Below, piece after piece: positions 3,602 to 28,676 of a stretch of DNA of 64,000 bases. A model generated the notes under the pieces. It saw nothing but the letters and a program-made list of their open reading frames with translations, was not told the origin of the DNA and did not search any database. Each line of letters begins with the position of its first letter. The first letter of the stretch is position 1. Where the stretch lies: IMG/VR virus record IMGVR_UViG_2974670102_000001, positions 1 to 64,000 of that record. One strand, written 5' to 3'. Both the position numbers and the translations under genes were made by a program. This DNA comes from a virus (Duplodnaviria > Caudoviricetes).

Positions 3602-3624
3602 CAATACCTTAGTGAAATGCTGGG

Positions 3625-3801
3625 TTATACGCGTTCGACGTATTGCCCCGAACGATAGGCGCGCGTTTCCTCTACGCGCCCATAGAATTCCAGATCGAAC
3701 GTTACGATTCCGTTCGCGTCATAGACGAACAGGACAAGGGCCCGCGCCCCGTCGATTTTCAGCGTATCGCCCGCTTGCACGTCCCGCGCTCTTACTTGCA
3801 T
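3625..3801 (-). CDS. small beta-rich (SH3-like) hypothetical protein, 58 aa
   Basis: Hand-translated MQVRARDVQAGDTLKIDGARALVLFV...; RBS GAGGTG; stop lies inside a 27-bp element. Confidence 0.65.
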   Translation of the reverse strand: MQVRARDVQAGDTLKIDGARALVLFVYDANGIVTFDLEFYGRVEETRAYRSGQYVERV

Positions 3802-3847
3802 GGTGTATCACCTCTAGGTGAATGCGGGGCCGGGCGGCCCCGCATGG

Positions 3848-4492
3848 TTAGATATACTGGCGTTGCTTGTAGCTCAGGGGGCTTGCATACTTCGGGGCCG
3901 GGTCGAGCAGCCAAGTGCGGATTTGATCGGCGCAAGACTTGCGGAACGCAGACCGGAAATTACGCGTGCGCAGCAGCGTAACGCATGCCGGGTATTGATC
4001 GCCCATCGCATCACGCAGAGCCGCCACACGTTCGACCGCGCACCCGATTTCGGCCGCAAGCGCCGCATCGGCCGCCGCTTGCTCTGCTGCCTTGCGCGCG
4101 GCTTCCGCTTCGCGCTGGGCCTGTGCTTCCGCCGCACGCTGGGCTTTCCATGCTTCGTGCGCTGCCTGCACTTCGGGCGTCGCGTCCGGCTTAGAGCCGT
4201 AGCATGGATACGACCAGCCCCGAGTCGTCGCAAAGAGAATGTCTTCGCGACAGCCCTTTTCAGGGTTCCAGACGGCCATATACCAATCGGAATCATCGTA
4301 TCCGTTACGCTCGTAATCGAACAGGCAGAGACCTACATGCGACAGGCTAATGGTTACGTGATTCGATTCCGACATGGCACCGCCATTGTAGGCATACGAG
4401 TGTGCTTCGGCCGCGTCCGGATACCACGGCGTGTAATCGCCTTCCGCGCTGTACACCTTCCCGCCCTTTGCCTCAAGATTGATGATTGCCAT
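3848..4492 (-). CDS. hypothetical phage protein
   Basis: 214-aa ORF, RBS GGGG, ERNGYDDSDW motif, Ala-rich coil. Confidence 0.8.
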   Translation of the reverse strand: MAIINLEAKGGKVYSAEGDYTPWYPDAAEAHSYAYNGGAMSESNHVTISLSHVGLCLFDYERNGYDDSDWYMAVWNPEKGCREDILFATTRGWSYPCYGSKPDATPEVQAAHEAWKAQRAAEAQAQREAEAARKAAEQAAADAALAAEIGCAVERVAALRDAMGDQYPACVTLLRTRNFRSAFRKSCADQIRTWLLDPAPKYASPLSYKQRQYI

Positions 4493-4527
4493 TTCGTTCC
4501 CCGTCTGGGTTTGTTGAGCATGTACAA

Positions 4528-4556
4528 ATGATAGCGGCCCCGATTGGGGCCGTCAA
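4528..4556 (-). promoter_or_regulatory. sigma70-like early promoter with hairpin spacer
   Basis: TTGACG-GCCCCAATCGGGGCCGC-TATCAT. Confidence 0.75.
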
Positions 4557-4583
4557 CAATAACCCTTCACTTTATGGGGTTAT

Positions 4584-4787
4584 TCAGTAGGCGAGCAGAT
4601 CGCGCAGCGCATCGCGGTTTTTCGACATATGGTCGATGATCGCGAGCCGTTCGCGTAACCCGATATTGCGGAACGCGGGGCACCCGTCGAGCAGATCGCC
4701 CAGCAAACCGTCCCGATATTCGAGTGCCTTTTCCATGGTGTCGAATTGCTTGCCGCGCGTTACATAGACCCTCTTTTCTTCGATCAC
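4584..4787 (-). CDS. hypothetical phage protein
   Basis: 67 aa, GTG start, RBS AGGGGG. Confidence 0.7.
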   Translation of the reverse strand: MIEEKRVYVTRGKQFDTMEKALEYRDGLLGDLLDGCPAFRNIGLRERLAIIDHMSKNRDALRDLLAY

Positions 4788-4803
4788 GATAAATCCCCCT
4801 GTG

Positions 4804-4980
4804 TTATGCGAGCCAGACAGCCAGCGATGCGACGCTGGAAAGCGTGGTACGGGCCGAACGGTGCGCCTTGTGCCACGCAGCGCGAGCCGTGCGCGCCGGG
4901 TGCGCCCAGTTAGCGCGATCCGCGTAGAGTGCGCACGCCAGCTTATAGCGTTCGTCGCGCAATTGTTCGATAGTGTGCAT
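4804..4980 (-). CDS. small hypothetical protein (58 aa)
   Basis: Hand-translated MHTIEQLRDERYKLACALYADRANW...; RBS AAGGA. Confidence 0.6.
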   Translation of the reverse strand: MHTIEQLRDERYKLACALYADRANWAHPARTARAAWHKAHRSARTTLSSVASLAVWLA

Positions 4981-5026: not shown

Positions 5027-5245
5027 TTAGCTGCGATCCATGATGAAGCGCGAGACAGCGCGGGGCGTGTTCAGACGAACCGTTTCGTATTCCGTCCGGA
5101 CAGCCGCGCCGTTATAGACGCGCACGGGGTCTTGCACTTCGATAGAACCGTCCTGCATGGATGCGACCGTGTAGCCGTCACGTTCCAGAATTGCCACGTA
5201 GGGCTTCATTGCGTGGAACAGTTCGATTGCGTTAGCTTGTGGCAT
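5027..5245 (-). CDS. hypothetical phage protein
   Basis: 72 aa, RBS GGAG; follows promoter TTGACG-N17-CATAAT. Confidence 0.7.
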   Translation of the reverse strand: MPQANAIELFHAMKPYVAILERDGYTVASMQDGSIEVQDPVRVYNGAAVRTEYETVRLNTPRAVSRFIMDRS

Positions 5246-5336
5246 GGTGCTGACTCCGTGCGCTGCGTTGAAAGTGATTCCATTATGGGGCGTGTTCGAC
5301 GCCCCGTCAACAGTACCCGACTAAAACGCGGGGTCT

Positions 5337-5501
5337 TTAAACCGCTGCCAGTTCATCCGCCCGGAAGTGACCGCGCACGCCGTAGCGATTTTCGCAGACA
5401 ATGAACTCACCCTCGAAGCCGATAACGCGGATCGTTGCGGCATTGACGCCCGTAAGGATGCGAGCGCGAACAGCTTGATTGAGTGCGAATGCGTGTTTCA
5501 T
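5337..5501 (-). CDS. small hypothetical protein
   Basis: Start MKHAFALNQ, RBS AGGA; promoter TTGACG-N17-CATAAT at 5535-5563. Confidence 0.65.
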   Translation of the reverse strand: MKHAFALNQAVRARILTGVNAATIRVIGFEGEFIVCENRYGVRGHFRADELAAV

Positions 5502-7580: not shown

Positions 7581-7666
7581 TTTGCGCCCCTGCGTTTCGT
7601 TGATCGATGGCTCTATTCTGGGGCCCGCGTTTCGGGCTGTCAACAATACCCGACTAAAACGCGGGG

Positions 7667-8368
7667 TTATTTGGTCGGATGCCGGTCGATACAGGCTTGC
7701 GCTGCCTCGTCTACCGTGTCGAACAGGCCCGAATCCTCAACCCAGAATCGCGCGCTGTAACGATAGTTGTCGCCGATAGGCTGAATCGCGAATCCCAGTT
7801 CACTGCACTGCGTAATCAGGCTCTGTGTATGCTGTTCGGCATCGCGCTTGCGTTGCACGTCGAAATGCGCGCGCATCAGTTCCCGAACGAGCCCGGTTCG
7901 CGCGCTGTCCATCGTCTGAAACGGGCCCGCGATGTTACGCTGTGCCGTTACGTCGAACACGTAGAAAGGCGCGTCGCGGCCGTCGCCCTGTAGCGTGCCA
8001 TCGTCGGCCGTGCCGTCGATTACCAGACAGTTACCGTCGGCCGTGTAGCCGGTGCGCGCTTCGTCCAGTTCGCGAGCCTTTGCGCTCGCGCGCTTAACGG
8101 CCGCCCATGCGGTCGGGGCGGGGGCTGCTGCATCTTCCGTCTTCGCGACCGGTTCGGCATCCACGCGCGGCTGATGGTAGCGGCTGACAGCTTCCGCAAC
8201 CTGTGCGGCGTCGATTTCCGACGCGGCGGACACCACGTGACCCTGTTCGATCAATTCGGCCATATAGCAGCAGACAGCCATTTCGCTATCGCCTTGCGGA
8301 TGCGCGGTGCGGCCGATGTAGACGATCCAGTTACCGTGCATGTTCTTGCGTGCGCGAATCAGGGACAT
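7667..8368 (-). CDS. multi-domain hypothetical protein
   Basis: 233 aa, RBS GGAG; stop inside a 27-bp element. Confidence 0.8.
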   Translation of the reverse strand: MSLIRARKNMHGNWIVYIGRTAHPQGDSEMAVCCYMAELIEQGHVVSAASEIDAAQVAEAVSRYHQPRVDAEPVAKTEDAAAPAPTAWAAVKRASAKARELDEARTGYTADGNCLVIDGTADDGTLQGDGRDAPFYVFDVTAQRNIAGPFQTMDSARTGLVRELMRAHFDVQRKRDAEQHTQSLITQCSELGFAIQPIGDNYRYSARFWVEDSGLFDTVDEAAQACIDRHPTK

Positions 8369-8458
8369 GATGCTAACTCCGTGTGTTGTGTGTCGATGTG
8401 TGTATTCTGGGGCCTATAGTCGGCCCCGTCAACTATTCCCGAGTAAATCACTCAGGTA

Positions 8459-8674
8459 TCACATAGTGCGTTGCCGTGTGTAGAGCACGCGGTTAATGTC
8501 GTCGCGGATGCACACACGATAGGGGCCGTCGCGTTCCACTATGTAGGCCCGCCACTTGTGAATTACGATCGTTCGCGCGCATCCATAGGTGATCATCTTG
8601 TGTTCACCTTCGTCCGCGATCATTTGCGCGTCCTCTTCCGCCAGCTTGGCGGGGCCGTCGTCGTTCGTGCTCAC
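8459..8674 (-). CDS. hypothetical phage protein
   Basis: GTG start (VSTNDDG) with RBS GGGGG. Confidence 0.55.
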   Translation of the reverse strand: MSTNDDGPAKLAEEDAQMIADEGEHKMITYGCARTIVIHKWRAYIVERDGPYRVCIRDDINRVLYTRQRTM

Positions 8675-8685
8675 GGTCGCCCCCG

Positions 8686-9123
8686 CTAGATGAGTGTCTG
8701 AGGATCGACGCCATGCGCCGCGCCTATGCGCTCGCGAGCGGCCCGGCTCGCCTCGTATTCCACGCGACAGAACTCGCTGAACTCGCGACCGACGAGGCGC
8801 GCGGCTATCGCCTCGTCCTGCCGTTCCTCGTATGCAGCGCGTTCGGGGCTTGCCGCATATTCTGCCTGAGCGGCGGCCCGTGCTTCTGTCGCGTGTTCGG
8901 CCTGCACGCGGTTCAATTCGATCCGTGCGCGTTCCGTGTTCAGCGTCAGGCACGACAGCGCGTAGAACAGGCTTTCCCCTGTCTCCGTCACGTCAACGCG
9001 CCACGTGCTCAGGTAGCCCGTGCGCCCGCAACAATCGCACTTGGTGACTGTTCCGGTCGGGCCAATGATTCGAAACCCCGTTTCCGCGATGGTGCGTGCG
9101 CGTTCTGCCTTTTCGTCGTCCAT
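8686..9123 (-). CDS. Cys-containing hypothetical protein
   Basis: 145 aa, RBS AAGGGG; CDCCGR...C possible Zn site. Confidence 0.75.
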   Translation of the reverse strand: MDDEKAERARTIAETGFRIIGPTGTVTKCDCCGRTGYLSTWRVDVTETGESLFYALSCLTLNTERARIELNRVQAEHATEARAAAQAEYAASPERAAYEERQDEAIAARLVGREFSEFCRVEYEASRAARERIGAAHGVDPQTLI

Positions 9124-9209
9124 AGCAATTCCCCTTTCCTGTGATTGGTGAGTGTGTCAATCTCAGTATAGGATGCACGCGCGAAAAGCAAAGGCGCACG
9201 TGATCCCGG

Positions 9210-9473
9210 CTAACCCTTATTCGTCATAACATGGAAATACAGGATTCCCCCAATGTCGGCACGCGGTGCGCGCGACTCGTAACGGCGTGTGAAGTGATTG
9301 TAATAAGTGCCTGAGACCATACGCGACTGATTGCTGTACATGCGAGCCAGACCCGCGTCAACTAGGGCACGCGCCGCCTGTGCCTGACGTGCGCCCACAA
9401 CCGGCACGCTATCGGCGTCGCCCCGCGCGTCTAACAGGGCCTGCATTGTCTTCGTGATCTTAACCATGCTCAA
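9210..9473 (-). CDS. hypothetical phage protein
   Basis: 87 aa, coupled to the upstream gene, RBS AAGGA. Confidence 0.6.
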   Translation of the reverse strand: MSMVKITKTMQALLDARGDADSVPVVGARQAQAARALVDAGLARMYSNQSRMVSGTYYNHFTRRYESRAPRADIGGILYFHVMTNKG

Positions 9474-9697
9474 TCCTTGTCCTGTGGCGCAAACGGGCTG
9501 ATTACTCGCCCCTCTTTTCCTGCCCGATACCCGCGTTTCAACCCTTGCACAAATCCCGAAACACAGGCACGAATGACGTGCATTCCAACATACACGGCGT
9601 TAGCACCTTCGCCCGCGATGCCCGCGCCGTTTGCGAGCATGCAGACGACGACAATTAGGGCGGCCCGACGCGCCCACTTACCCGCGCCCGGCTTCAC
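9470..9697 (-). CDS. hypothetical membrane or secreted protein
   Basis: GTGA coupling; hydrophobic AALIVVVCML. Confidence 0.55.
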   Translation of the reverse strand: MKPGAGKWARRAALIVVVCMLANGAGIAGEGANAVYVGMHVIRACVSGFVQGLKRGYRAGKEGRVISPFAPQDKD

Positions 9698-9873
9698 AGC
9701 GTGATATCAGGAAACACGCCCGGGCGTGCGGCTCGAACCTGCACAGCGGAACCGGGGAACATGACACGGCCAAGCCATGCGCCTGCCTCGTCGCCCGAGG
9801 CACAGCGGACAAGGCGCGTGCGCACCACGTTAGAGCCGTCGCGAATCACACAAAACCAGATATCCTTGTCCAT
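9694..9873 (-). CDS. small hypothetical protein (59 aa)
   Basis: Hand-translated MDKDIWFCVIRDGSNVVRTRL...; RBS AGGGA; first gene after the promoter at ~9910-9938. Confidence 0.6.
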   Translation of the reverse strand: MDKDIWFCVIRDGSNVVRTRLVRCASGDEAGAWLGRVMFPGSAVQVRAARPGVFPDITL

Positions 9874-10435
9874 CGTCCCTACCCCTTACCCTTCGTTGAC
9901 GGTAACGCTATCCTAATCCAGACAATCCGCCACGTCAACAATAACCCCTCGTTTCAGTCGGGTTTATTTCTGCACAGAAACCCCACACAATCCGGGGTTA
10001 TTCCCGTGCCCGGCTAACCACTCGCAGCACGCTACTTTCTTCATTATAAACACGCGCTACAGCCCCTTAAACGGGCCGCCTGTAGTTTCCCCTACCCATC
10101 AGTCAATCACGCGCACCGGGCCGCCTGAGCGCGTTCTCTGCGTCTATGCGTTCGTCAGGAATGCAGCGCAATGCGGGGCCCGGGCCCGGGCCATTGATCG
10201 GGAATCCTGACGATCCGGGCTCGCGCGATTAGATGATTCGCACTACCGACGAATGCGGTACTTGACGCGCTGCCCCGTCTGTGCCGTGTGCGATGCCCCG
10301 CCCGGGCCCCGCCCCATCCGGTTTTCGTTAGCACAACTAATCGCGCTCGTCAACTATACCCCCTCCCCCCATCCGGTTTTTAGCACCCCCTCCCCCTATC
10401 TGTGGTAGTAAGGTATCCTACCAAAACCCCGTTTT

Positions 10436-10552
10436 CGGGCCCGGGGTTTTTCGTGAAATAAACAGGGGGTCTAATTCGCGTGCGTAAGGTATCCCCCGGA
10501 TGCTGGGTGCGGGCCCGGGGTTTTTCGTGAAATAAACAGGGGGTCTAATTCG
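10436..10552. repeat. 43-bp perfect direct repeat (2 copies, 74-bp period)
   Basis: CGGGCCCGGGGTTTTTCGTGAAATAAACAGGGGGTCTAATTCG at 10436-10478 and 10510-10552. Confidence 0.9.
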
Positions 10553-10583
10553 TGTGCGGTGCGCGTGTGCCGCGTATAAACGG

Positions 10584-10616
10584 AAAAGGGGAACCCCTAT
10601 CATGCAGGTTCCCCTA
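10584..10616 (-). terminator. intrinsic terminator
   Basis: AGGGGAACC...GGTTCCCCT stem followed by TTTT on the minus strand. Confidence 0.65.
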
Positions 10617-10637
10617 TCTGGCGTGCGTGCTGTGTGT

Positions 10638-10934
10638 CTAGTCCGCTGCGCCTGCGTCTACGTGGTGCGATTCCACAAGCGTATGCCCGTGTTCTACTGC
10701 ATAGGCGCGCACCCGCTCGATTACGTGTTCAACGATCCAGCGTTCGGGGCCCTGTATCGTGAGCGTAACCCGGTTAGCCCATTGCTTAGAACGGACGTGC
10801 GCACCACAGGCCCGGGCTTCTGCGTGTACGTGATTCACGAACGCGCGGCGCGCATCCGCGAACGCGTTATCGTTGTCGGATACGCGATAGTGCATGGTCG
10901 CGCTATATGTTGCGGTGATGTTAATCACGATCAT
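10638..10934 (-). CDS. hypothetical phage protein
   Basis: Start MIVINIT, RBS GGGGG. Confidence 0.6.
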   Translation of the reverse strand: MIVINITATYSATMHYRVSDNDNAFADARRAFVNHVHAEARACGAHVRSKQWANRVTLTIQGPERWIVEHVIERVRAYAVEHGHTLVESHHVDAGAAD

Positions 10935-11184
10935 TTCCGCCCCCGTCGAATTCATGCCCCATATTCAGGGCATAGGCGGCGCGGGCCTCCCGTTCCCAGT
11001 CGGGGCTTAACGAATCCGTGCGCGTCGCACACACGATATCCTCGTCGTCTGCCTCAATATCACCCGCACAAAACGGGGCTAACTCATATACCCGTGCCGT
11101 GTCCCGGTTGTCTAGCAGCGATGCCGGGACGCACACGCTACCGTGTGTAGTTTCGAGTGCGAAATACTTGGTTTCCGTAACCAT
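10921..11184 (-). CDS. hypothetical protein; paralog of the N-terminus of 14476..15006
   Basis: Start MVTETKYF, RBS GGGGG; YF...T.HG...VPA shared. Confidence 0.65.
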   Translation of the reverse strand: MVTETKYFALETTHGSVCVPASLLDNRDTARVYELAPFCAGDIEADDEDIVCATRTDSLSPDWEREARAAYALNMGHEFDGGGNDRD

Positions 11185-11201
11185 ATCCGTTCCCCCGTGC
11201 T

Positions 11202-11387
11202 TTACTTGGTGAGTGCGTCGAGCCCGTAGAGCACGAACAACGTGAACAGCGTGCCACACATGATAGAGCCCATAATCACGGTCACGGGGCTGGATTTGTG
11301 GGCTTGTTGCGAACGCGGGTGCGGTGCCTGCGTGTACGCGCGCCTGATCTTTGCACGTTGCTCTGCGTTGCCGTATCCGTATTTCAT
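11202..11387 (-). CDS. small C-terminally anchored membrane protein
   Basis: Start MKYGYG; TM VIMGSIMCGTLFTLFVLYGL. Confidence 0.65.
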   Translation of the reverse strand: MKYGYGNAEQRAKIRRAYTQAPHPRSQQAHKSSPVTVIMGSIMCGTLFTLFVLYGLDALTK

Positions 11388-11470
11388 GGTCTTGTCCAAT
11401 GGGTTAGTTGATGTGGTGATTATGGGGGCTGGCTGCGCCCCCGTCAACTATACCCGTTTAGAGTGTGGGG

Positions 11471-12475
11471 TTATTCTGCTTTGTTCGCGACGAACGCGAG
11501 GGCCTGTACTTCTGCGGCCTGCACGCGTTTATACTCGGCTTCGCTGACAGCCCGGCCCCCGATCCGGATACGCGCCGGAAACTGGTTGAAAATCTCACCC
11601 CGAACACTCGTATTGATGATGATACGCTGGTTGATTACCACGCGTTGACCTACGGGCGTGCGGCCCGTCAACAGGAATTCGTAACCCGTGATCGATTGGA
11701 AAGCCGGGTCTTTCAGGTCGCCCGCCTTCGACATTACCTTGTGCTCTACGCTGTCACGCACGGCGCGGGCGTAGTCTGCGGCACGGGCGCGAAGGCGTTC
11801 GGCGTTGATCGAACCATCGCCATTCGTGCATGCGCGCAGTGTCGAGGCGTAGAATTTCGACCATGCCTTATCGCGGGCGATGCCAGCCAGCAGGGGCCCG
11901 AATTTTGCGACTGCCTGAGCGTGTCGCGCGCTCACGTAGTCTTCGAATTGTGCGACGAGCGCCGGGCCCTGTGCATCGAGTGCGGCGCGCACCACTTCCG
12001 ACAGAACGGGGGCGGACATGGTGCGTTCCACGTGTGCGCGCTGTGAGGTTGCGGCCCGCGTCTCGCGCTTCGCGATCCGGGCTTTTGCGGCCTTCAACGC
12101 GGCTTCAACCTCAATCCATTCCGCAAACAGGTGCACGGCCGTGCGTGCGATAGCGTGTCGGCCAGCGAGTGCGACGGCCGCCCGGTGCATGCGCTTCACA
12201 CTCGGCAGGTTCGACGCATCATAATACAGGTCTTGCAATTCGTCGGGGCGCGGGAACGCGAGCGCCAGATAGGGGGCGCGCACCGCCCATTCCATCAGGT
12301 TTTCATAGACGGTCGTGAGTTCCGCGCGCATTTCCTTGTAATCGACGGCGCGCATGCTATCGGTGCCGCAAAGCTGGGCGATACGCGAATCGAACGCGTT
12401 GATAGCACGTGCATTGTGCGGACGATCCGACAGCAGAATGCGGGCGAGTGCGGCGCGCGTGTTTTGCAGTTCCAT
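11471..12475 (-). CDS. hypothetical phage protein (334 aa)
   Basis: Start re-called at MELQNTR with RBS GAAGGGG; the ORF-track N-terminus derives from the -35 TTG. Confidence 0.85.
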   Translation of the reverse strand: MELQNTRAALARILLSDRPHNARAINAFDSRIAQLCGTDSMRAVDYKEMRAELTTVYENLMEWAVRAPYLALAFPRPDELQDLYYDASNLPSVKRMHRAAVALAGRHAIARTAVHLFAEWIEVEAALKAAKARIAKRETRAATSQRAHVERTMSAPVLSEVVRAALDAQGPALVAQFEDYVSARHAQAVAKFGPLLAGIARDKAWSKFYASTLRACTNGDGSINAERLRARAADYARAVRDSVEHKVMSKAGDLKDPAFQSITGYEFLLTGRTPVGQRVVINQRIIINTSVRGEIFNQFPARIRIGGRAVSEAEYKRVQAAEVQALAFVANKAE

Positions 12476-19872: not shown

Positions 19873-19966
19873 GATGGTTCCCTTAGAGAAGGTTTGTTAA
19901 GTAAGTGTGTGTATCATACCGGGTTTAATTTCGTCCGTCAATTAAACCCGTACTAAAATTAGGCTT

Positions 19967-20107: not shown

Positions 20108-20120
20108 AGTGAACTCCAAA

Positions 20121-20564: not shown

Positions 20565-20658
20565 GGTTGCCTCTAGGCGGTTAGTGCTGCGTTGAAAGTG
20601 ATGCTATTGTATGCGGCCCGTTCTAGAGCCGTCAACAATAACCCACTAATTCGAGGGG

Positions 20659-20940
20659 TTATTCTTCGACCCACAAGCTAGGATCGCACGACGTTTCAAT
20701 CCGGAAGTGCGACGCATCGCGATAACGGCGCACAAACAGGCGGCCGTGCTGCGCGTAGGTCATGCCTTCAGTCAGCCATGAAACATGGTGCAAATCGCCC
20801 GGCATCGGGGATTTGAGCGGCCCTGCGTGCGTGACACGAACGGGCGTGAATTCGTCAGGGAACAGCCGCGCATCGTAGCGCGTGCGCCGATAGTAGAGGG
20901 TCTTACCATCCACGTAATCCTGAAAGCATGCGGGTTTCAT
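20659..20940 (-). CDS. hypothetical phage protein
   Basis: Start MKPACFQ, RBS AAGGGG. Confidence 0.65.
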   Translation of the reverse strand: MKPACFQDYVDGKTLYYRRTRYDARLFPDEFTPVRVTHAGPLKSPMPGDLHHVSWLTEGMTYAQHGRLFVRRYRDASHFRIETSCDPSLWVEE

Positions 20941-20950
20941 GGTCGGCCCC

Positions 20951-21100
20951 TTACTCGGCATCGTACAGTGCGCACGCGTCGGCATAGCTAACGCCTTCGC
21001 ATTCCATGATCGTTTCGATCATGCGTTCGCGCTCGTCGGCTGCTGCCTCGTCGCGCATGTCGTCCATACCGTTCCGCCCCATCATTCCTACTTGTGCCAT
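20951..21100 (-). CDS. small acidic protein
   Basis: Start MAQVGMM, RBS GAAGGGG. Confidence 0.65.
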   Translation of the reverse strand: MAQVGMMGRNGMDDMRDEAAADERERMIETIMECEGVSYADACALYDAE

Positions 21101-21189
21101 TTCGTTCCCCTTCGGGTTCGTTGAATCGATGGACAAATAGTAACAGCCCCTTAGAGGGGCCGTCAACAATAACCACAAATAATTTGTGG

Positions 21190-21438
21190 TTATTCGGTGC
21201 GGAACAGGTGCGCGGGCGCGTCGTGCTCGTACCAGTAACGGGCATCGCGTAGCGTGTCATGACTGCCGACCGCGCGGCCGTCGATGCTGACGAGCCATCG
21301 ATTACGCGTAAGCGTCACCATACGCGCATGGGGCGGCCCGTCCGGGCTGTAGTTATCGCGTACCTGTACCAGTGCGCCGGACGGCGTGCAGGCCGCATAC
21401 AGCCCGGCCTCTACACGTTTCAGGGGCGGCCGGTTCAT
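21190..21438 (-). CDS. hypothetical phage protein
   Basis: Start MNRPPLK, ATGA coupling. Confidence 0.6.
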   Translation of the reverse strand: MNRPPLKRVEAGLYAACTPSGALVQVRDNYSPDGPPHARMVTLTRNRWLVSIDGRAVGSHDTLRDARYWYEHDAPAHLFRTE

Positions 21439-21929
21439 TCCGGTTTCCACGTCGAATAGGCGGCGGTGCGCGCAACGAATTGCGCGATAGCCGCGTCGAT
21501 CCGGGCGCACAGCTTCGCGTGGTGCGTTTCGTTGAGGGTCTGCCGACGCTTGCCCCCGGCTATCATGCGCACCCCAGCATGCACCACATACACGGCACCG
21601 GCCGGGCTTTCGACACGCCAGCTAGGCACGTTTCCGACGGTTGCCGTCTGTTCCACTTTCCAGCCCGCAACGTCGGGCCGGGCGGCGGCCGTAGCCGGGT
21701 CTGCGGCCCGCGCGCTCGCGATGGCCGGGGCCGTGCCCTTGTTCACGCGTGCCGACAGGTGCGCGACGTATGCGCGGAACGCATCGCCAATCGTGAACCC
21801 TGCGGGCAGTTCCGGAATCTCGCGCAGCAACGAATCGAACCCCCGCGCCCCTTTCTCGTAATCGAACCCGAGCACGGCCGCGAGCGCATCGCGGGCCGTC
21901 GGCGTCATTTGGTCATAAAGCTTTTTCAT
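21435..21929 (-). CDS. hypothetical phage protein
   Basis: 164 aa, RBS AAGGGA. Confidence 0.7.
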   Translation of the reverse strand: MKKLYDQMTPTARDALAAVLGFDYEKGARGFDSLLREIPELPAGFTIGDAFRAYVAHLSARVNKGTAPAIASARAADPATAAARPDVAGWKVEQTATVGNVPSWRVESPAGAVYVVHAGVRMIAGGKRRQTLNETHHAKLCARIDAAIAQFVARTAAYSTWKPE

Positions 21930-21942
21930 GGTGTCAAATCCC

Positions 21943-22635
21943 TTAACGGATCATGCGATGTTGGACGGTCACGAATGCTTGCCGGATCGCCCCGGCTTCG
22001 GTTTCCCACTCGTTAGCGGGCATCGGAAAACACGGATGCGACGCGAGCCACAGACCGGACGGCATGCACACGATATCGAACCCGAACGCGGCTACCACTT
22101 CCGCCTGAGACATGGTGTTAAGATCGCGTTGCATCACGCCCCCCTTGGCTTTGCGCGGTGCCCGGCCTGCGAGCATATACACGGTTTCGCGGTACTTGGC
22201 GCGGGCCTTTTTCAGTTCGTTCAGTGCGAACGATTCGGACAAAAGCGGCTCGCCTTCGTCTGCGTTCACTGCCGACAGGATAAGCGCGCCTGCACGGTGT
22301 TCAAGCCTTACGCGAACGCCCGCGCGTTCCACCTGTTCCACGTAGCCGCACGTCAGCGCGTACAGCGTAAGCGAGCCGTCCGCGTTTTTAAGCAATACGT
22401 CGGGGCGCACGCGTGCAACGCGTTGTTTGCCATGACGGCGCGCGAGCCACACGCGATAATGCCCCTCGTCGGTGCGGCCGTCGATATAGCGACGCGCGGC
22501 GTCGAGCGTCATAAACTCCCCATGCGTGACGCCTACAACAGTTCGCGCGTCGCCGTGCATGACGACAAAACCCTCGCGCGTGCTGCCGGTCAAAACGTCG
22601 TCAACGATAAAGAAACAGTTATGGATTTCGATCAT
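21943..22635 (-). CDS. hypothetical phage protein
   Basis: 230 aa, RBS AAGGGG. Confidence 0.75.
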   Translation of the reverse strand: MIEIHNCFFIVDDVLTGSTREGFVVMHGDARTVVGVTHGEFMTLDAARRYIDGRTDEGHYRVWLARRHGKQRVARVRPDVLLKNADGSLTLYALTCGYVEQVERAGVRVRLEHRAGALILSAVNADEGEPLLSESFALNELKKARAKYRETVYMLAGRAPRKAKGGVMQRDLNTMSQAEVVAAFGFDIVCMPSGLWLASHPCFPMPANEWETEAGAIRQAFVTVQHRMIR

Positions 22636-22732
22636 GGTCAGCCCCTTTAGGCCGGTCTTTACTGCGTTGAAAGTGATTCTATTCTATGGGGCCTGCTGCC
22701 CCGTGTCAACAATAACCCCAGACTTTACTGGG

Positions 22733-23089
22733 TTATTCGTTGTCCATCATCCCGAGCCGGGCCCGGATCATTGACAGGCGTTCCGATACGGGCACGGCAC
22801 GGCCGCCGCCCAGACGAACCCATCCCGCGCCAGACGGGCACGCGTCAATGTCATGCACCCCGGAATAAGCGGCGCAAATGTCGGCCGCACTGTTAGCCTG
22901 TAGCAGCGTATAACCGGCCGTGCGCGCGTGCTGCGCAGCATCCCGGCCTGACTCCCACACGCGAGCATGCGCCCGGCCCGTCTTCTGTTCACCCTCCCCT
23001 ACAAACTGCGCGGGGCCCTGCGCGACGACACGCAGACGATAGCGCGTCGTGCCTTCGTGTTTCTGACGCATCACATACACTTGTTGCAT
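22733..23089 (-). CDS. hypothetical phage protein
   Basis: 118 aa; single-gene unit; stop inside a 27-bp element. Confidence 0.7.
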   Translation of the reverse strand: MQQVYVMRQKHEGTTRYRLRVVAQGPAQFVGEGEQKTGRAHARVWESGRDAAQHARTAGYTLLQANSAADICAAYSGVHDIDACPSGAGWVRLGGGRAVPVSERLSMIRARLGMMDNE

Positions 23090-23187
23090 ACCCTTAAAAC
23101 TCCCGTTCGTGAATCGATGAGTGCAGTATGTGCGCGTGTGCCCGTACCGTCAACAGTACCAGACTAATTAACTCAGGTATTAGGGCA

Positions 23188-23215
23188 AAAGAAAAGGGCC
23201 CCTAGGGGCCCTTTT
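23188..23215. terminator. bidirectional intrinsic terminator
   Basis: AAAAGAAAAGGGCCCCTAGGGGCCCTTTT. Confidence 0.75.
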
Positions 23216-23231
23216 GCGAGTGCGCGACGGA

Positions 23232-23639
23232 TCAACGATAGAGGTATTCCGTCCCCTCAATATCGATGGTCGAATAATCGACGCTCAGATTTTTGGCGGT
23301 CGCGTCCCAATCGATGACGAGATAGGACGGGATTTCGCGCGGCATGTCCCCGATATCGGACACCAATTGTTCACAATACTCCGTGAAGTGGCTGTCACGA
23401 ATCAGGCAGCCCGGATACCAATTACCCTCATATTGATGGTCGCCGCCTTCCCCGTTCAGTTCGGTCAGGATTTTTTCAAGCTGCTCCAGTTCGACCGCTT
23501 CGTCCGGGTTTTCGTCCGCCCAATCTGCGGCCCGGTCGTCGTCGCTGTCGTGCGTGTCGCGCTCGTCTTTCAGTTCGTCGTAACGGTCGCAAATGTCGGA
23601 CACGTTGATGATATCGGCGCTCAGGTCAAGATCGGACAT
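23232..23639 (-). CDS. ArdA-like acidic antirestriction (DNA-mimic) protein
   Basis: Very acidic 135 aa; FTEYCEQLVSDIG..P..IPSYLVIDWDATAKNL..DY resembles the ArdA C-terminal IDYE/WEA.ARDL..DY motif. Confidence 0.6.
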   Translation of the reverse strand: MSDLDLSADIINVSDICDRYDELKDERDTHDSDDDRAADWADENPDEAVELEQLEKILTELNGEGGDHQYEGNWYPGCLIRDSHFTEYCEQLVSDIGDMPREIPSYLVIDWDATAKNLSVDYSTIDIEGTEYLYR

Positions 23640-23760
23640 GGTGTTTACTCTGCTGTTTGGTTAAGGTGTTACCAGTATAGATGGGAGAATTCCCTGCGTC
23701 AAGAATAACCCCGCATAGTGTAGGGATTATTCTTGACGGGGCCCGAAAGGGCCCGGGCCG

Positions 23761-24150
23761 TTATTCGGCGTCGTCTTCCTCGTCGGCCGTTTCGGTCGCT
23801 TGTTCCACGTCGGGCACTTCCGACGTGCGCCCGAGCGATTCAGCCAGTTCGCGGAACCATACGGCGTCGCACCCGTCCATATCCGTATATTCGGCCGCCA
23901 GTTCCGCAAACGTGCCTTCACGCCCAGCGTAAGGCGACGTGTAGAACGATTCCAGCGCGCCATCGCGCAAGATCGCCGCTTGAAAATCGGCGTTCGTCAG
24001 GAATACGAGCCCGCTATGCGTGTTGAACGCCGCTTGTACCGCTTCGGTGCTGAAGTCTTCGGGCAGGCCGCCATCGTTCCATGCTTGTAGGATCGCGATG
24101 AGTTCATCACGTTCGCGACGGCCCATGTTTGCCATGTTGGTAAGCGACAT
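23761..24150 (-). CDS. acidic hypothetical phage protein
   Basis: 129 aa, RBS AAGGA; FNTHSGLVFLTN motif. Confidence 0.75.
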   Translation of the reverse strand: MSLTNMANMGRRERDELIAILQAWNDGGLPEDFSTEAVQAAFNTHSGLVFLTNADFQAAILRDGALESFYTSPYAGREGTFAELAAEYTDMDGCDAVWFRELAESLGRTSEVPDVEQATETADEEDDAE

Positions 24151-24237
24151 TCGTTTGATTCCTTGTTCGTTCAGAGAGATTACATTGTGCCGGGTAGTGT
24201 TCTCTCTGTCAACAATACCCGAGTGCGGCGCGGGGTC

Positions 24238-24612
24238 TTACTTCGTCAACGCGCCCGACAGGCTTTTGACGCATGCGCCGTAAGCGGGCTCGCGTGCATC
24301 GTCGGGGCTCGCGCCCTTGAATGCGGCGCTGCTGTAAATCAGGGCCGCATTACCCTTCATCAGATCGACAAGCGGACGCGCGACGCCCGCAAACGTGCGT
24401 TCGATATCGGCCTGAGTTTCCGCGAGCGTCACCCCGCTATCACGTGCGCGAACCGACAAAACCGCAACGTCAGCAACGCCGTTACACGTCTGCGAAATGT
24501 TCGCCTTTTCTTCCGCCGTGAGCGGCGCAGCCTGCGCCGGAACCCCAGCCCCGCACGATGCGGCAGTCGCGAGCGCAGCGAACGCGACTGCGGAAACGGT
24601 ACGTTTGAACAT
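24238..24612 (-). CDS. secreted or periplasmic protein with signal peptide
   Basis: MFKRTVSAVAFAALATAASC...AQA; RBS GGAG; paired Cys. Confidence 0.7.
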   Translation of the reverse strand: MFKRTVSAVAFAALATAASCGAGVPAQAAPLTAEEKANISQTCNGVADVAVLSVRARDSGVTLAETQADIERTFAGVARPLVDLMKGNAALIYSSAAFKGASPDDAREPAYGACVKSLSGALTK

Positions 24613-24693
24613 GCTTGATTCTCCGGTTATGCGTCTGTTGAAAGTGAGTCTATTGTATGCGGGCCCGTGTAGGCCCGTCAACAATAAACCCCT

Positions 24694-25050
24694 TTACCCT
24701 AGGGTCTTCGCGATCCGACGCGCCCAGCGTCGAGCATAGCCCGCGCGTCGGCATCCGTGCGGATGCGTCGGCCCCGTGCCCTGCCCCAGACAATACAGAT
24801 AGGCGCGAAGGGCTGCATTGATGCTTTCCGGGGTTGCGCCCAGTTCACGCGCAAGATTTTTGCGCCTCAGTCTGAGCAACGCCATAAGGCTGTCTGCCTC
24901 ATACGTGTAACGTTCGTGTTTCAGGCCCGCATGCGCCATGATGCACGAATCGATTGAGACACGGGCGCGCGGTTGCATAGCCGCCGCCCAGCCCGGAACC
25001 GGGGCCTTTCGTTGTCGCCAATATTCGGCGTGTTCGCCTGTCACGATCAT
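24694..25050 (-). CDS. hypothetical phage protein
   Basis: Start MIVTGEH, ATGA coupling. Confidence 0.6.
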   Translation of the reverse strand: MIVTGEHAEYWRQRKAPVPGWAAAMQPRARVSIDSCIMAHAGLKHERYTYEADSLMALLRLRRKNLARELGATPESINAALRAYLYCLGQGTGPTHPHGCRRAGYARRWARRIAKTLG

Positions 25051-25343
25051 GACTTGAGCCCCCGCACGAAACGGCAGACACCCATGTACTGACGGCGACA
25101 ATCGGCCAGCCACGCGGCCCATGCTTCGGGGTATTCCCGGCCCCAGCCGATATAGAACCCGATCAAATCCTGATCGCGCCTTTGATTGCAGGACAGGGCG
25201 TCCGACAACGCGAATTTATCCACGTCGAGCCGTTCCAGTTGATCGCGGATCGAATCGACCAACATGCACCCCGAGCCACGCACCCATGCATAAAACTCGA
25301 ATTCGTTGATCGTGTCATCGGCAAACTTCACTTGGTTTTCCAT
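25047..25343 (-). CDS. hypothetical phage protein
   Basis: 98 aa, RBS GAAGGGG. Confidence 0.7.
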   Translation of the reverse strand: MENQVKFADDTINEFEFYAWVRGSGCMLVDSIRDQLERLDVDKFALSDALSCNQRRDQDLIGFYIGWGREYPEAWAAWLADCRRQYMGVCRFVRGLKS

Positions 25344-25430
25344 TTCGTTCCCCTTCCGGGTTCGTTGAGCGTGAAACCAGTATAGACGGGCGCGCGGCGC
25401 ACGTCAACAATAACCCCGTGCTCTATGGGG

Positions 25431-25853
25431 TTAAATCAAAATCATTTCCGTGTAACCCAGCGTCCGGGCAATTGCCAGCAGCGCATCATTACCCGCGCCC
25501 TGTTCGCACGACTCAAACGCGATTGGTGCGCCCGCGTCGTCGCGTATATCGATCCCTGCCGACACTAGGGCCCGGTCGAACGCGAGCCCGAACGATTCAC
25601 GCCCCGCGCTCGTCTTCGCCACGCCGTAACCTGACGTGGTAGCGGCCCCGCAACGAACCCACAGCGACGCATAGAGGTTCGTTGCGGACGTGCTGCGCGA
25701 TGCCCAGTAACGCAATTCGCACACGTGTTCAAGCTTACCCGTTACCGGGTTAAGGGCAACGAGGGAAACGGTGCGGATGCGTTCCTTCGTCCCGTCGTGC
25801 TGCTGCGCGTTATCCTGTTCACCCTTAAACGTTACTTGCATACGTTGCCTCAT
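25431..25853 (-). CDS. hypothetical phage protein
   Basis: 140 aa, ATGA coupling; stop inside a 27-bp element. Confidence 0.7.
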   Translation of the reverse strand: MRQRMQVTFKGEQDNAQQHDGTKERIRTVSLVALNPVTGKLEHVCELRYWASRSTSATNLYASLWVRCGAATTSGYGVAKTSAGRESFGLAFDRALVSAGIDIRDDAGAPIAFESCEQGAGNDALLAIARTLGYTEMILI

Positions 25854-26353
25854 TCCGCCGCATTCTTGCCAAGGTGTTCCGCGAGCGGTTCACCATTTTT
25901 CATCAGCGTAACCGACTCCCCGGCCGCGCGCCCCGTCCCCTCGTCGGACGTGATGACCCATGCATCATAGGCTGCATACGCGGCCGTTCGGTCGTCGCCT
26001 TCGTACACGGTGCCGACGTTACCGACGATGACGAGATAGCCCGTGTTCGTCGGGTTCGCGATGCCTTCAATGACTTCGATAGCTTGCTCGCGCGTGCTGT
26101 AGCGGTGGAACTCGCCCAGCGTTTCCACGTTGCCGGTTTCCCCGTCGATCTTGCGCACCGAAAATTTCGTGATCCCCGACGGGTTCGTTTCCTGCGAAAC
26201 GAAATAGTACGAGCCGAAAATCAGCCAGCCCCGGGCCGGAAGTCGGGTCTTGAAAAACTTCATTGCATCAGCATCGAACCAGTGCCCGTTAGGATTCTTT
26301 TCGGCGTAGTGCGCGCGAATCGTGGACATGGTGACGGTCTTAGCGTTTTTCAT
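25850..26353 (-). CDS. two-domain hypothetical phage protein
   Basis: Start MKNAKTV, RBS AAGGGG; GHWFD...MKFF.TR motif. Confidence 0.8.
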   Translation of the reverse strand: MKNAKTVTMSTIRAHYAEKNPNGHWFDADAMKFFKTRLPARGWLIFGSYYFVSQETNPSGITKFSVRKIDGETGNVETLGEFHRYSTREQAIEVIEGIANPTNTGYLVIVGNVGTVYEGDDRTAAYAAYDAWVITSDEGTGRAAGESVTLMKNGEPLAEHLGKNAAE

Positions 26354-26451
26354 TTGGTGCCCCTTTAGGCGTCGTGATTGGATGACTGAATTATGCGCGG
26401 GCCCGTCTGGCGTGTCAACAATAACCCCAAAATTTTTATGGTTATTCAGGC

Positions 26452-26476
26452 AAAGAAAAAGCCCCGGCTGGGGCTT
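26452..26476 (-). terminator. intrinsic terminator
   Basis: AAGCCCCAGCCGGGGCTTTTTCTTT. Confidence 0.7.
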
Positions 26477-26627
26477 AGAGGATGCGGGCCGCCTGTATGG
26501 CCGCCGCTCGCGTTCGGGCCGTCCCGTGAGACTGGCCCCGCACGTCAAAAATTTCCCACAAGCGACGGTCGCCTACACGCTGCACGTAGCCGCGTAGCGT
26601 CCCCCGCTCGTCGTAAACCGGGGTCAT
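26475..26627 (-). CDS. small hypothetical protein
   Basis: Start MTPVYDE, ATGA coupling. Confidence 0.55.
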   Translation of the reverse strand: MTPVYDERGTLRGYVQRVGDRRLWEIFDVRGQSHGTARTRAAAIQAARIL

Positions 26628-27301
26628 GATCCGCGCGTGTCGAGCACTTCCGCCGCTTCCGTAATCGTAAGGTTCGGCACGCCGTCCACCATCCACGTTT
26701 CGACCGTCTGCCCGGCAATCCGGCGCAGGTAGACGGAAACCGGGACATTACGCAACCGGCCATGTCGCGCGGCCCCGAACGCTGCGAGTTCGTCCGATTT
26801 TGCGGCAAACCGAGCGACAATGGATTCTGCGAAGTCAACCAGTTCACGGGCTGCCGCAAGCGGGATAGCCTTGTGCGGTTGCGGGGCCGCGACTCGCGCA
26901 ACCTCGTTTTCTGCGTCGCGTTGCTGGGTGAACGTGCCCCGTCCGTCAACGTACCAGTTACACACGATCCAATCACGGGCCCGCGTATGGATCGCGCAGC
27001 ACGTGACAGGCACGCCCCCGATATCTGCGGTTTCCGCATGATCGTCTTTCGACGTGCGGGCGATCTCGCGCGCTTCGTTCGCGAGTTTCGACAGTTCGGC
27101 CGAAATTTGATCGATGGTCATTACTTGTCCGTTCAACATGGCTTCGAATTCCATTTCATTTTCGAGAAAATACAGTTCGGGGGTGCCCGCGATAAGATGC
27201 CGGGCCGCCCGCGCTTGCTCGGCACGCCATTCCGGATTATCGGGGAATGCGCGCCGGGCCCGGGCTAGTTCGATCCGCAAGTGTAGCGCGAGCGGTGACA
27301 T
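26624..27301 (-). CDS. hypothetical phage protein
   Basis: 225 aa; TAATG coupling with the upstream gene. Confidence 0.7.
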   Translation of the reverse strand: MSPLALHLRIELARARRAFPDNPEWRAEQARAARHLIAGTPELYFLENEMEFEAMLNGQVMTIDQISAELSKLANEAREIARTSKDDHAETADIGGVPVTCCAIHTRARDWIVCNWYVDGRGTFTQQRDAENEVARVAAPQPHKAIPLAAARELVDFAESIVARFAAKSDELAAFGAARHGRLRNVPVSVYLRRIAGQTVETWMVDGVPNLTITEAAEVLDTRGS

Positions 27302-27786
27302 TATGCGACGAGCCGCTTAACGGGTTCAACGCTGCGCGGGTGATAAACCCAGCGCAGTTCAGCCAGCAAGGGCGCGTATTCTTCCGGGGTTGCCAGCTTC
27401 AAATCGCGGCCCAGACTGCGCGACACTTCCCCATGCTGCCCCGTGTGCATGTAGGACATCACGTTACCCGGGTTGCAGTCTTTCGCGCTGTTACAGAAAA
27501 ACGCGATTACGTAACCCTCGCGAAACTTGCGGAACACGACACGCAACGCGGGCGGCGCAAACTTCGCGGCCCCGTAGCGCTGCGCGTCTTCGGACAGGGC
27601 GCGCACGCCCGAGGGGTCATGTGCATCCCGCGAGCCGTGAACGTCGACCAGATCGCCGCTGCGCTTATCGAATTGAAACGTGATCGGAACGCGGGGGCCA
27701 AACCCGGGCCATTTGCGCGCGAACGCTTCAACGTCTGCGGTCGTGCACTGCACGGTAAAGAATGCCCCATTATCATATGCTCGCAT
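27301..27786 (-). CDS. two-domain hypothetical phage protein
   Basis: 161 aa, RBS GAGG; C-terminal VVFRKF...SYMHTGQHG...ATPEEYAPLL.EL domain. Confidence 0.8.
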   Translation of the reverse strand: MRAYDNGAFFTVQCTTADVEAFARKWPGFGPRVPITFQFDKRSGDLVDVHGSRDAHDPSGVRALSEDAQRYGAAKFAPPALRVVFRKFREGYVIAFFCNSAKDCNPGNVMSYMHTGQHGEVSRSLGRDLKLATPEEYAPLLAELRWVYHPRSVEPVKRLVA

Positions 27787-27882
27787 GGTTGCCTCTAGGC
27801 GGTTGTGCTGCTGTTGAAAGTGAAACCAGTATAGGACGGGGCCGCCGCCCCGTCAACAATACCAGACTACCGCGAGGGGTCT

Positions 27883-28254
27883 TTATTCCGTGCCCCGCAA
27901 GCGACGTACAATTTCCGCGTGCGACAGGCCCGACATAAGACGGTCAATTTCCGCTTGCTCGTCCGCCTGCCGTCGCTCGTCTTCTGCTACCTGCCTAGCG
28001 AGTTCTGCGCGCCACTCTTTCAGGGCCCGCGCGCCCTTTTCCGTGCTGCGCGGATCAACCGACAGATAGAGCGTGACTTCGCGCCCCTCCCGGTCAACGA
28101 AAACGGGCGTGCCGCTATTTTTCACCACTACCGTGAAATGCGACTGAACCAGACGGTTTACGGTGTCGGCATCGATAGCCCCGCCAAACGATCCGCCCAC
28201 AACCTTCCGCGTGTTGTCGCTGTAGAGGCGCGTGTGATAGCTGATATTGCGCAT
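27883..28254 (-). CDS. hypothetical phage protein
   Basis: 123 aa; single-gene unit. Confidence 0.75.
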   Translation of the reverse strand: MRNISYHTRLYSDNTRKVVGGSFGGAIDADTVNRLVQSHFTVVVKNSGTPVFVDREGREVTLYLSVDPRSTEKGARALKEWRAELARQVAEDERRQADEQAEIDRLMSGLSHAEIVRRLRGTE

Positions 28255-28331
28255 GTCAAACCCTGTTGGTGCGTTGAAAGTGATACCAGTATAGGGGCGG
28301 CGGGCCGCCCCGTCAACAGTATCCGATTAAT

Positions 28332-28676
28332 TTAGTCGGGTTTGTCGTCCTGCACTTGTGCGCCCGGCCGCGCCAGCTTTTCCAGCTTGGCAAGCAACGA
28401 AACAGCGTCCTTAACGTAGCAGGTGCACGCGGGCCGCTTCGCCTCATACTCTGCTACTGCCTGAGCATGCGCCGCCCGGTCTCCGTCCTTAACACGGCCG
28501 CCCGGCCCCCGCTTAGGGCCGCCCCCGAAAATCTGTTGAGCGTGTCTGTTGTGAACGGCAACCGCGCAGCTATAGGCGTGCATCGGATGCCGGATGAGGG
28601 GCCCGAAAATCGCGAGCACGTCCCGCGCTAAATCGGCTTGCCCGTCGTCGTATGCTTGATTGTATGCGTCCTGCAT
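28332..28676 (-). CDS. hypothetical phage protein
   Basis: 114 aa, RBS GAGGGG. Confidence 0.7.
   Translation of the reverse strand: MQDAYNQAYDDGQADLARDVLAIFGPLIRHPMHAYSCAVAVHNRHAQQIFGGGPKRGPGGRVKDGDRAAHAQAVAEYEAKRPACTCYVKDAVSLLAKLEKLARPGAQVQDDKPD

Follow-up and report, generated by a model that had tools for sequence, protein, structure and literature searches.

A Probable Compact Array of Composite Promoter-Terminator-Dyad Modules in the Burkholderia Jumbo Phage BcepSauron

The genome of BcepSauron, a jumbo phage of Burkholderia in the genus Sarumanvirus, begins with a one-directional array of small genes in which 29 copies of a single 27-nt imperfect inverted repeat, which we refer to as the dyad, mark the boundaries between short units. 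The DNA that we analyzed (the window, positions 1 to 64,000 of IMG/VR record IMGVR_UViG_2974670102_000001) is the first 64 kb of this genome, which is a single contig of 262,653 bp; coordinates are those of the window unless a genome position is indicated. We consider it probable that the array consists of compact, composite promoter-terminator-dyad modules whose intrinsic TAA serves as the stop codon of the gene upstream. A first-pass annotation of this DNA had instead likened the array to the gene cassettes of an integron.

Under our interpretation, the stretch from 2 to 28.3 kb would be a compact and probably early ORFan region whose minus strand is cut into 29 short transcription units. 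Each module would consist, in order, of the 27-nt dyad, a fused host-type sigma-70 promoter (GTTGAC, 17 nt, TAnAAT), and a conserved leader of 25 to 35 nt with a ribosome-binding site. In two thirds of the copies, a GC-rich hairpin in the promoter spacer, together with a U-rich tail, would probably terminate or attenuate the transcripts of the upstream unit. Upstream genes, in a region squeezed to its minimum length, would run on to the TAA in the distal half of the dyad, and the stop-in-element pattern would be a by-product of compaction and not a capture junction. Homologous exchange between modules would be an occasional and rare side effect, as with the promoter-early stem-loops (PeSLs) of T4-type phages. 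We infer the early timing, the use of the host RNA polymerase, the terminator activity of the spacer hairpins, and the role of the dyad.

The dyad and its promoter

Nearly every gene between 1.1 and 28.9 kb lies on the minus strand, and because this holds for the array genes, the element is to be read on the minus strand as well. The string GTCAACWRTA occurs 26 times on the plus strand, always between 1981 and 28312, and both strands of the genome are otherwise free of it. We curated 29 copies of the element, and their minus-strand alignment is free of gaps. Information content, counted relative to GTTGAC, falls from 1.64 bits at position −26 to 0.03 bits at −28; the 27-nt length of the element and its fusion to the −35 box are therefore real. 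The consensus runs from AATAACCC through a loop of 7 to 9 nt to GGGTATT and GTTGAC. The distal arm occurs in two variants, AATAAC or TAAAGA; the TAA of the second is in frame with that of the first and precedes it by one codon.

The array and its modules are listed here by coordinates and strand.
1951 to 28344, minus: the array, 29 composite regulatory modules and ~60 small genes; early or ORFan region
1951 to 2013, minus: module e1981; dyad 1987 to 2013, −35 box 1981 to 1986; no co-oriented upstream gene, arm still AATAAC
3567 to 3629, minus: e3597; dyad 3603 to 3629; upstream stop TAA 3625 to 3627 inside the arm; GC spacer hairpin of −14.7 kcal/mol
4522 to 4584, minus: e4552; dyad 4558 to 4584; stop TGA 4584 to 4586, 1-nt arm overlap; spacer hairpin of −16.0 kcal/mol
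5276 to 5338, minus: e5306; dyad 5312 to 5338, TAAAGA variant; stop TAA 5337 to 5339
7609 to 7671, minus: e7639; dyad 7645 to 7671; stop TAA 7667 to 7669
8398 to 8460, minus: e8428; dyad 8434 to 8460; stop TGA 8459 to 8461
9904 to 10003, minus: e9934; second tandem hairpin 9974 to 10003; promoter faces the 9860/9861 boundary of the invertible terminal segment
11413 to 11475, minus: e11443; dyad 11449 to 11475; stop TAA 11471 to 11473
12507 to 12569, minus: e12537; dyad 12543 to 12569; the arm TAA 12568 to 12570 closes a short ORF remnant
13280 to 13342, minus: e13310
13650 to 13712, minus: e13680
14379 to 14469, minus: e14409; canonical terminator 14454 to 14469 just upstream of the dyad; no spacer hairpin
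15044 to 15106, minus: e15074; stop TAA 15105 to 15107, then the consensus TAA in frame
15105 to 15635, minus: single-gene unit, 176 aa
15665 to 15755, minus: e15695; canonical terminator upstream of the dyad
16593 to 16655, minus: e16623; stop TAA 16654 to 16656; spacer hairpin of −16.1 kcal/mol, then a U-rich tail
17382 to 17444, minus: e17412
18171 to 18261, minus: e18201; canonical terminator upstream
19907 to 19969, minus: e19937; ATTGAC as −35; stop TAA 19967 to 19969
20601 to 20663, minus: e20631; stop TAA 20659 to 20661
21132 to 21194, minus: e21162; stop TAA 21190 to 21192; spacer 100% identical to that of e12537
22675 to 22737, minus: e22705; stop TAA 22733 to 22735
23119 to 23209, minus: e23149; canonical terminator upstream
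23668 to 23730, minus: e23698; CTTGAC as −35
24178 to 24240, minus: e24208; stop TAA 24238 to 24240
24647 to 24709, minus: e24677; upstream ORF stops in the dyad loop, 24694 to 24696
25373 to 25435, minus: e25403; stop TAA 25431 to 25433
26384 to 26476, minus: e26414; canonical terminator upstream
27822 to 27884, minus: e27852; stop TAA 27883 to 27885; spacer hairpin of −17.9 kcal/mol
28282 to 28344, minus: e28312; upstream gene stops in the dyad loop, 28332 to 28334

As a palindrome the dyad is imperfect: 68.6% of its cells are paired, versus 36 to 53% with a slid partner and 63.6 ± 1.9% for shuffled sequences, and there is some covariation. The hairpins that it could form are weak (−1 to −12 kcal/mol). 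A strand-asymmetry test for an RNA hairpin found no excess of G-U (17 cells) over A-C (18 cells), and an RNA hairpin is therefore not favored over a DNA dyad. None of the 46 other TTGAC-N17-19-TAnnnT matches in the genome carries the dyad, which is restricted to the array promoters. We lean towards the view that the dyad marks promoters of this class as an operator-like site on the DNA.

The first-pass annotation held that every unit carries its own promoter, and our scan bears this out. Between 9000 and 28999 we found 28 promoter-like sites, compared with 8.0 ± 2.8 in shuffles (both strands), and 26 of them are sigma-70-like sites on the minus strand, within 20 kb. Array promoters share an invariant TTGAC, a spacer that is mostly 17 nt (in a few cases 16 or 18), and a TAnAAT-like hexamer, and their −10 boxes score 9 to 11 of 12. 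The leader that follows, of three recurring types, leads to the ribosome-binding site and an ATG that lies 55 to 70 nt from the −35 box. The leader motif CATCGATT(A/C)A stands just 3' of the −10 box in array promoters and also in distant promoters that lack the dyad, on the minus strand of genome positions 237 to 261 kb (e.g., 244448, 254214, 258679, and 261000).

The spacers of the array promoters are rich in stem-loops. A spacer hairpin of −5 kcal/mol or stronger (−5 to −18 kcal/mol) is present in 19 of the 29 array promoters versus 8 of the 31 other sigma-70-like promoters of the genome. These hairpins are GC-rich palindromes, often followed by a U-rich tail that is supplied by the −10 region; folds with two hairpins have z-scores of −2 to −6, and the spacer hairpin of e15074 shows compensatory changes in L157, a Logan contig of a relative. 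Five modules, which we group as the D3 family, have a canonical terminator immediately upstream of the dyad, and four of the five lack a spacer hairpin at −5 kcal/mol, the exception being e18201 (−6.4 kcal/mol). Judged from sequence, a strong predicted terminator-like hairpin accompanies most units, in some within the promoter spacer and in others immediately 5' of the dyad, and the dyad is the constant part. Outside the array, canonical terminators also abut or overlap promoters: a terminator precedes a −35 box at 32063, and hairpins span a −35 or −10 box at genome position 252554 and at 63369. By these predictions, the genome habitually packs its terminators and promoters together.

Stop codons within the dyad

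The first-pass annotation had named 15 genes whose stop codons overlap the distal arm of the element, and it was right about each: every coordinate marks where a minus-strand stop codon ends, and all of these codons overlap the arm. Nine stops lie wholly inside the arm (3625, 7667, 11471, 19967, 20659, 21190, 22733, 24238, and 25431), five overlap it by 2 nt (5337, 8459, 15105, 16654, and 27883), and one by 1 nt (4584). Thirteen of these flush stops are TAA and two are TGA; the TAA share in the rest of the genome is 44% (Fisher P = 0.002). The genes ending at 24694 and 28332 do run into the middle of the element, as had been noticed, with their stops in the dyad loop, and the former is probably a 118-aa gene whose start, at 25050, is part of an ATGA overlap. 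All 11 units that had been said to hold a single gene were verified, and the full count is 15 of 29, with six units of two genes and four of three.

We attribute the flush stops to compaction of the genome and to a TAA that is intrinsic to the dyad. Between co-oriented genes, the distance from stop to ATG clusters at 77 to 98 nt where a module lies between them, which is the length of the module, versus a median of ~11 nt where there is none. An AATAAC arm with its TAA is also present in e1981, e17412, e23698, and e26414, where no gene uses it. In L157, the 3' half of the gene at 15105 to 15635 is scrambled, and the ORF still ends on the consensus TAA of the element, one codon later. The element therefore works as a built-in backstop stop codon.

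A different possibility is that the position of the stop within the hairpin arm is itself functional: a terminating ribosome would mask the dyad hairpin on the mRNA, and upstream translation would control attenuation, the stability of the mRNA 3' end, or read-through into the next unit. The flush stops do exceed the expectation of one frame in three (binomial P = 0.03 for all 29 modules and 0.003 for the 24 whose upstream gene is close by and co-oriented), the stops of the TAAAGA and AATAAC variants differ by one codon in position and share a frame, and the pairing potential of the dyad lies above its slid and shuffled controls. In 12 of the 29 modules, however, no stop falls in the dyad; these include the D3 family, in whose five members a canonical terminator separates stop and dyad. 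The near-equal G-U and A-C counts and the weakness of the dyad hairpins also speak against a role in RNA, and we think it improbable that the stops have such a function, whether in masking the hairpin or in coupling translation to the fate of the transcript.

Relatives and gene turnover

A direct comparison for the array comes from X3, a relative at ~95% identity (~190x coverage) from an activated-sludge metagenome, whose 19.9-kb contig is colinear with 9974 to 28399. This stretch is 18,426 nt in BcepSauron and 18,376 nt in X3, and across the ~22 modules that it crosses, no unit has been gained, lost, or moved. The differences consist of divergent patches within genes, a replacement of 88 by 327 nt at 12618 to 12707, and a 36-nt indel at 9938 to 9973; the 36 nt that X3 lacks are exactly one extra hairpin copy beside e9934. 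Endpoints of the divergent patches fall within 40 nt of a module in 6 to 7 of 28 cases, and ~6.6 are expected by chance. One apparent rearrangement in X3, a joint from 28330 back 19,928 nt to 8403, was rejected as an artefact in which the X3 copy of e5306 had been aligned to a paralogous module, the compared stretch having started at 8400: the letters at 28270 equal those of the window at ~5236 to 5265, and 5264 to 5324 is 84% identical to 28270 to 28330.

BcepSaruman, the sister of BcepSauron, has a genome of 263,735 bp and 93% average nucleotide identity (ANI) to it (bioRxiv 10.64898/2026.10.21.760668). We compared the two at the protein level for 29 array genes. Orthologs at 90% identity or more were found for 26, one more (12708 to 13217) corresponds to gp037 at 79%, and the BcepSaruman tags gp016, gp035, gp037, gp038, gp039, gp042, and gp059 follow the same order as in BcepSauron. 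An extra small gene of BcepSaruman, gp036, is intact in X3 as well (the 327 nt), and its remnant in BcepSauron is 12574 to 12707, whose last codons end on the arm TAA of e12537; the endpoints of the deletion, 12618 and 12707, lie outside any module. The unit at 15105 to 15635 has no BcepSaruman homolog, and there is no gap in the gp numbering that could accommodate it; at the protein level both neighboring genes are intact. The only relative of its product is a Logan protein with 73% identity. By this comparison it appears to be a genuine unit-level difference between the sister phages, although the case is biased, given that a deletion which spares both neighbors necessarily ends in modules. 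The 230-aa gene at 21943 to 22635 corresponds in BcepSaruman to two proteins of 166 and 63 aa in the same 90% cluster, split or frameshifted there.

Within the array, the modules bear traces of exchange. Their sub-modules are mosaic: similarity between hairpins is barely correlated with similarity between promoters and leaders (Mantel r ~0.1), and the nearest relative of a module's hairpin usually differs from the nearest relative of its spacer or leader. Module e5306, for example, combines the hairpin of e16623 (93%) with the leader of e28312 (82%), and one chimeric hairpin type is combined with three different promoter/leader types. Some module pairs that border unrelated genes are 90 to 91% identical over 71 to 82 nt, while for most pairs homology is short and imperfect (65 to 80% over 36 to 45 nt). 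No two array proteins are paralogous, and hence no unit is duplicated. These patterns indicate that exchange or conversion between modules has occurred and is rare on the timescale of 93 to 95% identity.

Beyond the genus, the array has no recognizable counterpart in the genomes that we compared. The core genes of BcepSauron resemble, at ~69% DNA identity, those of the Ralstonia phage RSL1, the Burkholderia phage BCSR5, and the Achromobacter phage Motura. In tblastn comparisons with these three, none of the 70 predicted genes between 1 and 29 kb was matched, versus 124 of 381 (33%) elsewhere in the genome. Over longer times, gene turnover in the array is thus complete. Pfam matched none of 10 array proteins, all PHROG matches are to families of unknown function, and an Rfam search of 1 to 32 kb matched no family. 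Searches of the array by blastn and tblastn against a phage collection gave nothing useful, a search of IMG/VR with a 334-aa array protein found no relative, and an IMG/VR scan with the 14-mer GTCAACAATAACCC gave single, chance-level matches per contig and no multi-copy locus. RSL1, BCSR5, and Motura have neither arrays of TTGAC-N17-TAnnnT promoters nor a conserved TATTGTTGAC core. Among the sequences that we could compare, the module appears not to be common to phages beyond Sarumanvirus-level relatives. Matches to TTGAC-N17-19-TAnnnT number 65 in the BcepSauron genome (45 on the minus strand; in blocks at 2 to 28, 60 to 104, and 237 to 261 kb) versus 5 to 9 each in RSL1, BCSR5, and Motura, and reliance on host-type promoters seems, from these counts, to be genus-specific.

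Part of the array lies in a terminal segment that appears to occur in two orientations. X1 and X2, two near-identical runs (at least 99% identity), have contigs in which 9861 is followed by the reverse complement of the window from position 1 onwards. This junction completes the first ORF of the window (2 to 136), which is open at its 5' end, as MDKDKVLEL..., with the e9934 promoter, its leader, and the first four codons of the gene at 9694 to 9873. The e9934 promoter and ATG would thus serve either end of the 9.86-kb segment. The junction agrees with a report of 'bidirectional terminal segments' in BcepSauron and BcepSaruman (bioRxiv 10.64898/2026.10.21.760668). We found no inverted repeat in the deposited sequence and no invertase in the genome. 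Positions 8400 to 9733 lack cover in X1, X2, and X4.

Three further features of the genome deserve mention. The ~400 nt at 10004 to 10420 contain no convincing ORF and are G-rich (runs of GGGGGAGGGGG), differ from X3 by many indels of 1 to 7 nt, and include a degenerate module at 10349; they may encode a non-coding RNA or be what is left of a unit that has decayed. Between the minus-strand array genes and the plus-strand genes, the gap at 29769 to 30038 holds five copies of a ~20-nt unit with CAAAAACTT, four of them at an exact 20-nt spacing. These copies look iteron-like and may represent an origin or a regulatory site. Finally, a 323-aa ORF has a weak, sub-threshold match to Sigma70_r2 (19.1 bits; genome 139893 to 140060) and may encode a phage sigma-like factor for later genes.

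Integrons, promoter-early stem-loops, and the meaning of the array

Integron cassettes are promoterless and expressed from a common Pc. The attC site that borders them is an imperfect inverted repeat of 57 to 141 bp with RYYYAAC and GTTRRRY cores, and the integrase IntI is a tyrosine recombinase. The BcepSauron array resembles such arrays in its co-oriented, mostly single-gene units, in an imperfect inverted repeat that can overlap a stop, and in its unrelated gene content. The first-pass annotation's picture of self-expressing units bounded by one element stands; its picture of genes captured flush against that element, as at attC, does not. The dyad is 27 nt rather than ~57 to 141 nt, is part of a promoter, and lacks attC cores: GTTGAC(G/A) has C at a purine position of GTTRRRY, and AATAAC is no match to RYYYAAC. 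In place of one Pc, there is a promoter for each unit. No recombinase had been seen in the window, and the absence extends to the whole genome, where neither PF00589 (Phage_integrase) nor PF00239 (Resolvase) has a match; as a control, the PF00589 search was positive in 14 of 14 genomes, and the control for PF00239 was positive too. Relatives are largely syntenic (gene order is kept in X3 and BcepSaruman, with one hairpin indel at a module and the gp036 endpoints off modules), and compaction, together with the TAA that AATAAC contains, accounts for the overlap. A true integron-like site-specific system, in which the dyad is the site of an unrecognised phage or host recombinase that captures or reorders cassettes, would have in its favor the superficial layout and the many array proteins of unknown function, among which a novel enzyme is conceivable. 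With no tyrosine or serine recombinase domain, no core fit, and no duplicated unit, we regard it as very improbable; the integron interpretation of the array is not supported and is close to refuted. Of the proposed recombination between elements, what survives is the mosaic sub-modules, the 36-nt hairpin indel, and the unit at 15105 to 15635, set against colinear relatives and the lack of any duplicated unit.

A nearer comparison is with the PeSLs, which in T4-type phages are composite cassettes of promoter and terminator (Arbiol et al. 2010, PMC2839356; Comeau et al. 2014, PMC4122927). The published account of the PeSLs of phi1 and RB49 places the upstream stop in an AT-rich tract, followed by sigma-70-like −35 and −10 boxes and by a Shine-Dalgarno sequence and start codon, with a polyG/polyC stem-loop mostly between −35 and −10 and the cassettes concentrated in hyperplastic ORFan regions (PMC2839356). 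The array is alike in its repeated sigma-70 consensus promoter, in a stem-loop in or beside the promoter (the 19 of 29 spacers described above, many at −10 to −18 kcal/mol), in an upstream stop within an A/T-rich stretch 5' of the −35 box, in a Shine-Dalgarno sequence and ATG at the 3' end, in its hyperplastic region of small ORFans, and in its chimeric or mosaic modules. It differs in its carrier, an RSL1-related Burkholderia jumbo phage and not a T4-type phage, in having a fixed 27-nt dyad fused to the −35 box in 29 of 29 copies and not a loose AT-rich tract, and in its cassette flux, which amounts to 1 unit in 29 genes at 93% ANI, whereas RB49 and phi1 differ by 17 genes. In dense tiny genes of unknown function and many strong host-type promoters interleaved with terminators in one direction, the array also resembles the early 'host-takeover' clusters of other large lytic phages, such as the terminal-redundancy module of SPO1 and the early regions of T4 and T5. 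To our knowledge, no fixed dyad fused to every −35 box has been described in those clusters. PeSL is the name of a functional class, not of a homology family, and we regard the array as a PeSL variant whose recombination part is putative. The earlier cassette proposal, including its circular intermediates, amounts in essence to the PeSL hypothesis, which has been published for T4-type phages.

It is possible that mobility is the main point, that is, that the modules are kept largely as portable homology for the phage recombination machinery, with units of ORFan plus module excised as mini-circles, inserted, and swapped, and with the flush stop as the edge of a unit. The modules would then be the PeSL counterpart in a lineage unrelated to T4, sites of occasional excision, loss, or import of ORFan units with 15105 to 15635 as a recent example, and the dyad would be a new component that regulates the promoter class and focuses crossovers. 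The anatomy agrees with the published PeSL description in point after point (PMC2839356), and the region is hyperplastic, with no gene common to the next genera. The mosaic sub-modules, the near-identical module pairs beside unrelated genes, the indel of one hairpin copy, and the unit absent from BcepSaruman between intact neighbors all point the same way. Against mobility as the reason for the modules, X3 shows no change of unit over ~22 modules, the one unit-level difference from BcepSaruman in 29 tested genes is biased towards a module-bounded look, the loss of gp036 was an internal deletion with endpoints off module, no unit is duplicated, and the homology of most module pairs is short and imperfect. 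A contig-level comparison with public runs found no mini-circle joints, contigs being prone to drop rare variants. On balance we find both the mobile-cassette account and its extension to a T4-unrelated counterpart doubtful, and we prefer a compact array of promoter-terminator-dyad modules in which exchange is incidental.

Some observations weigh against this preference. Terminator-like sites are not enriched overall (31, compared with 22.5 ± 4.8), and only 2 of the 27-nt dyads passed a simple terminator filter. The excess of flush stops may reflect more than passive run-on, such as selection for minimal length or an interaction of translation with the hairpin. The unit difference and the mosaic sub-modules mean, moreover, that the modules are not recombinationally inert.

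In jumbo phages, small genes of unknown function are grouped in large blocks. Many of these genes probably serve host takeover or anti-defence, and outside T4 the expression and turnover of such blocks are poorly understood. The PeSL layout, in which one repeat holds promoter and terminator and runs from stop to start codon, recurs here in an unrelated Burkholderia jumbo phage, and what is new relative to PeSLs is that all promoters of one class bear a fixed dyad. Stops internal to a repeat are no evidence of integron capture where the repeat contains a TAA and the genome is maximally compact. For experiments, the array offers 29 near-identical promoters, a candidate operator, and defined single-gene units.

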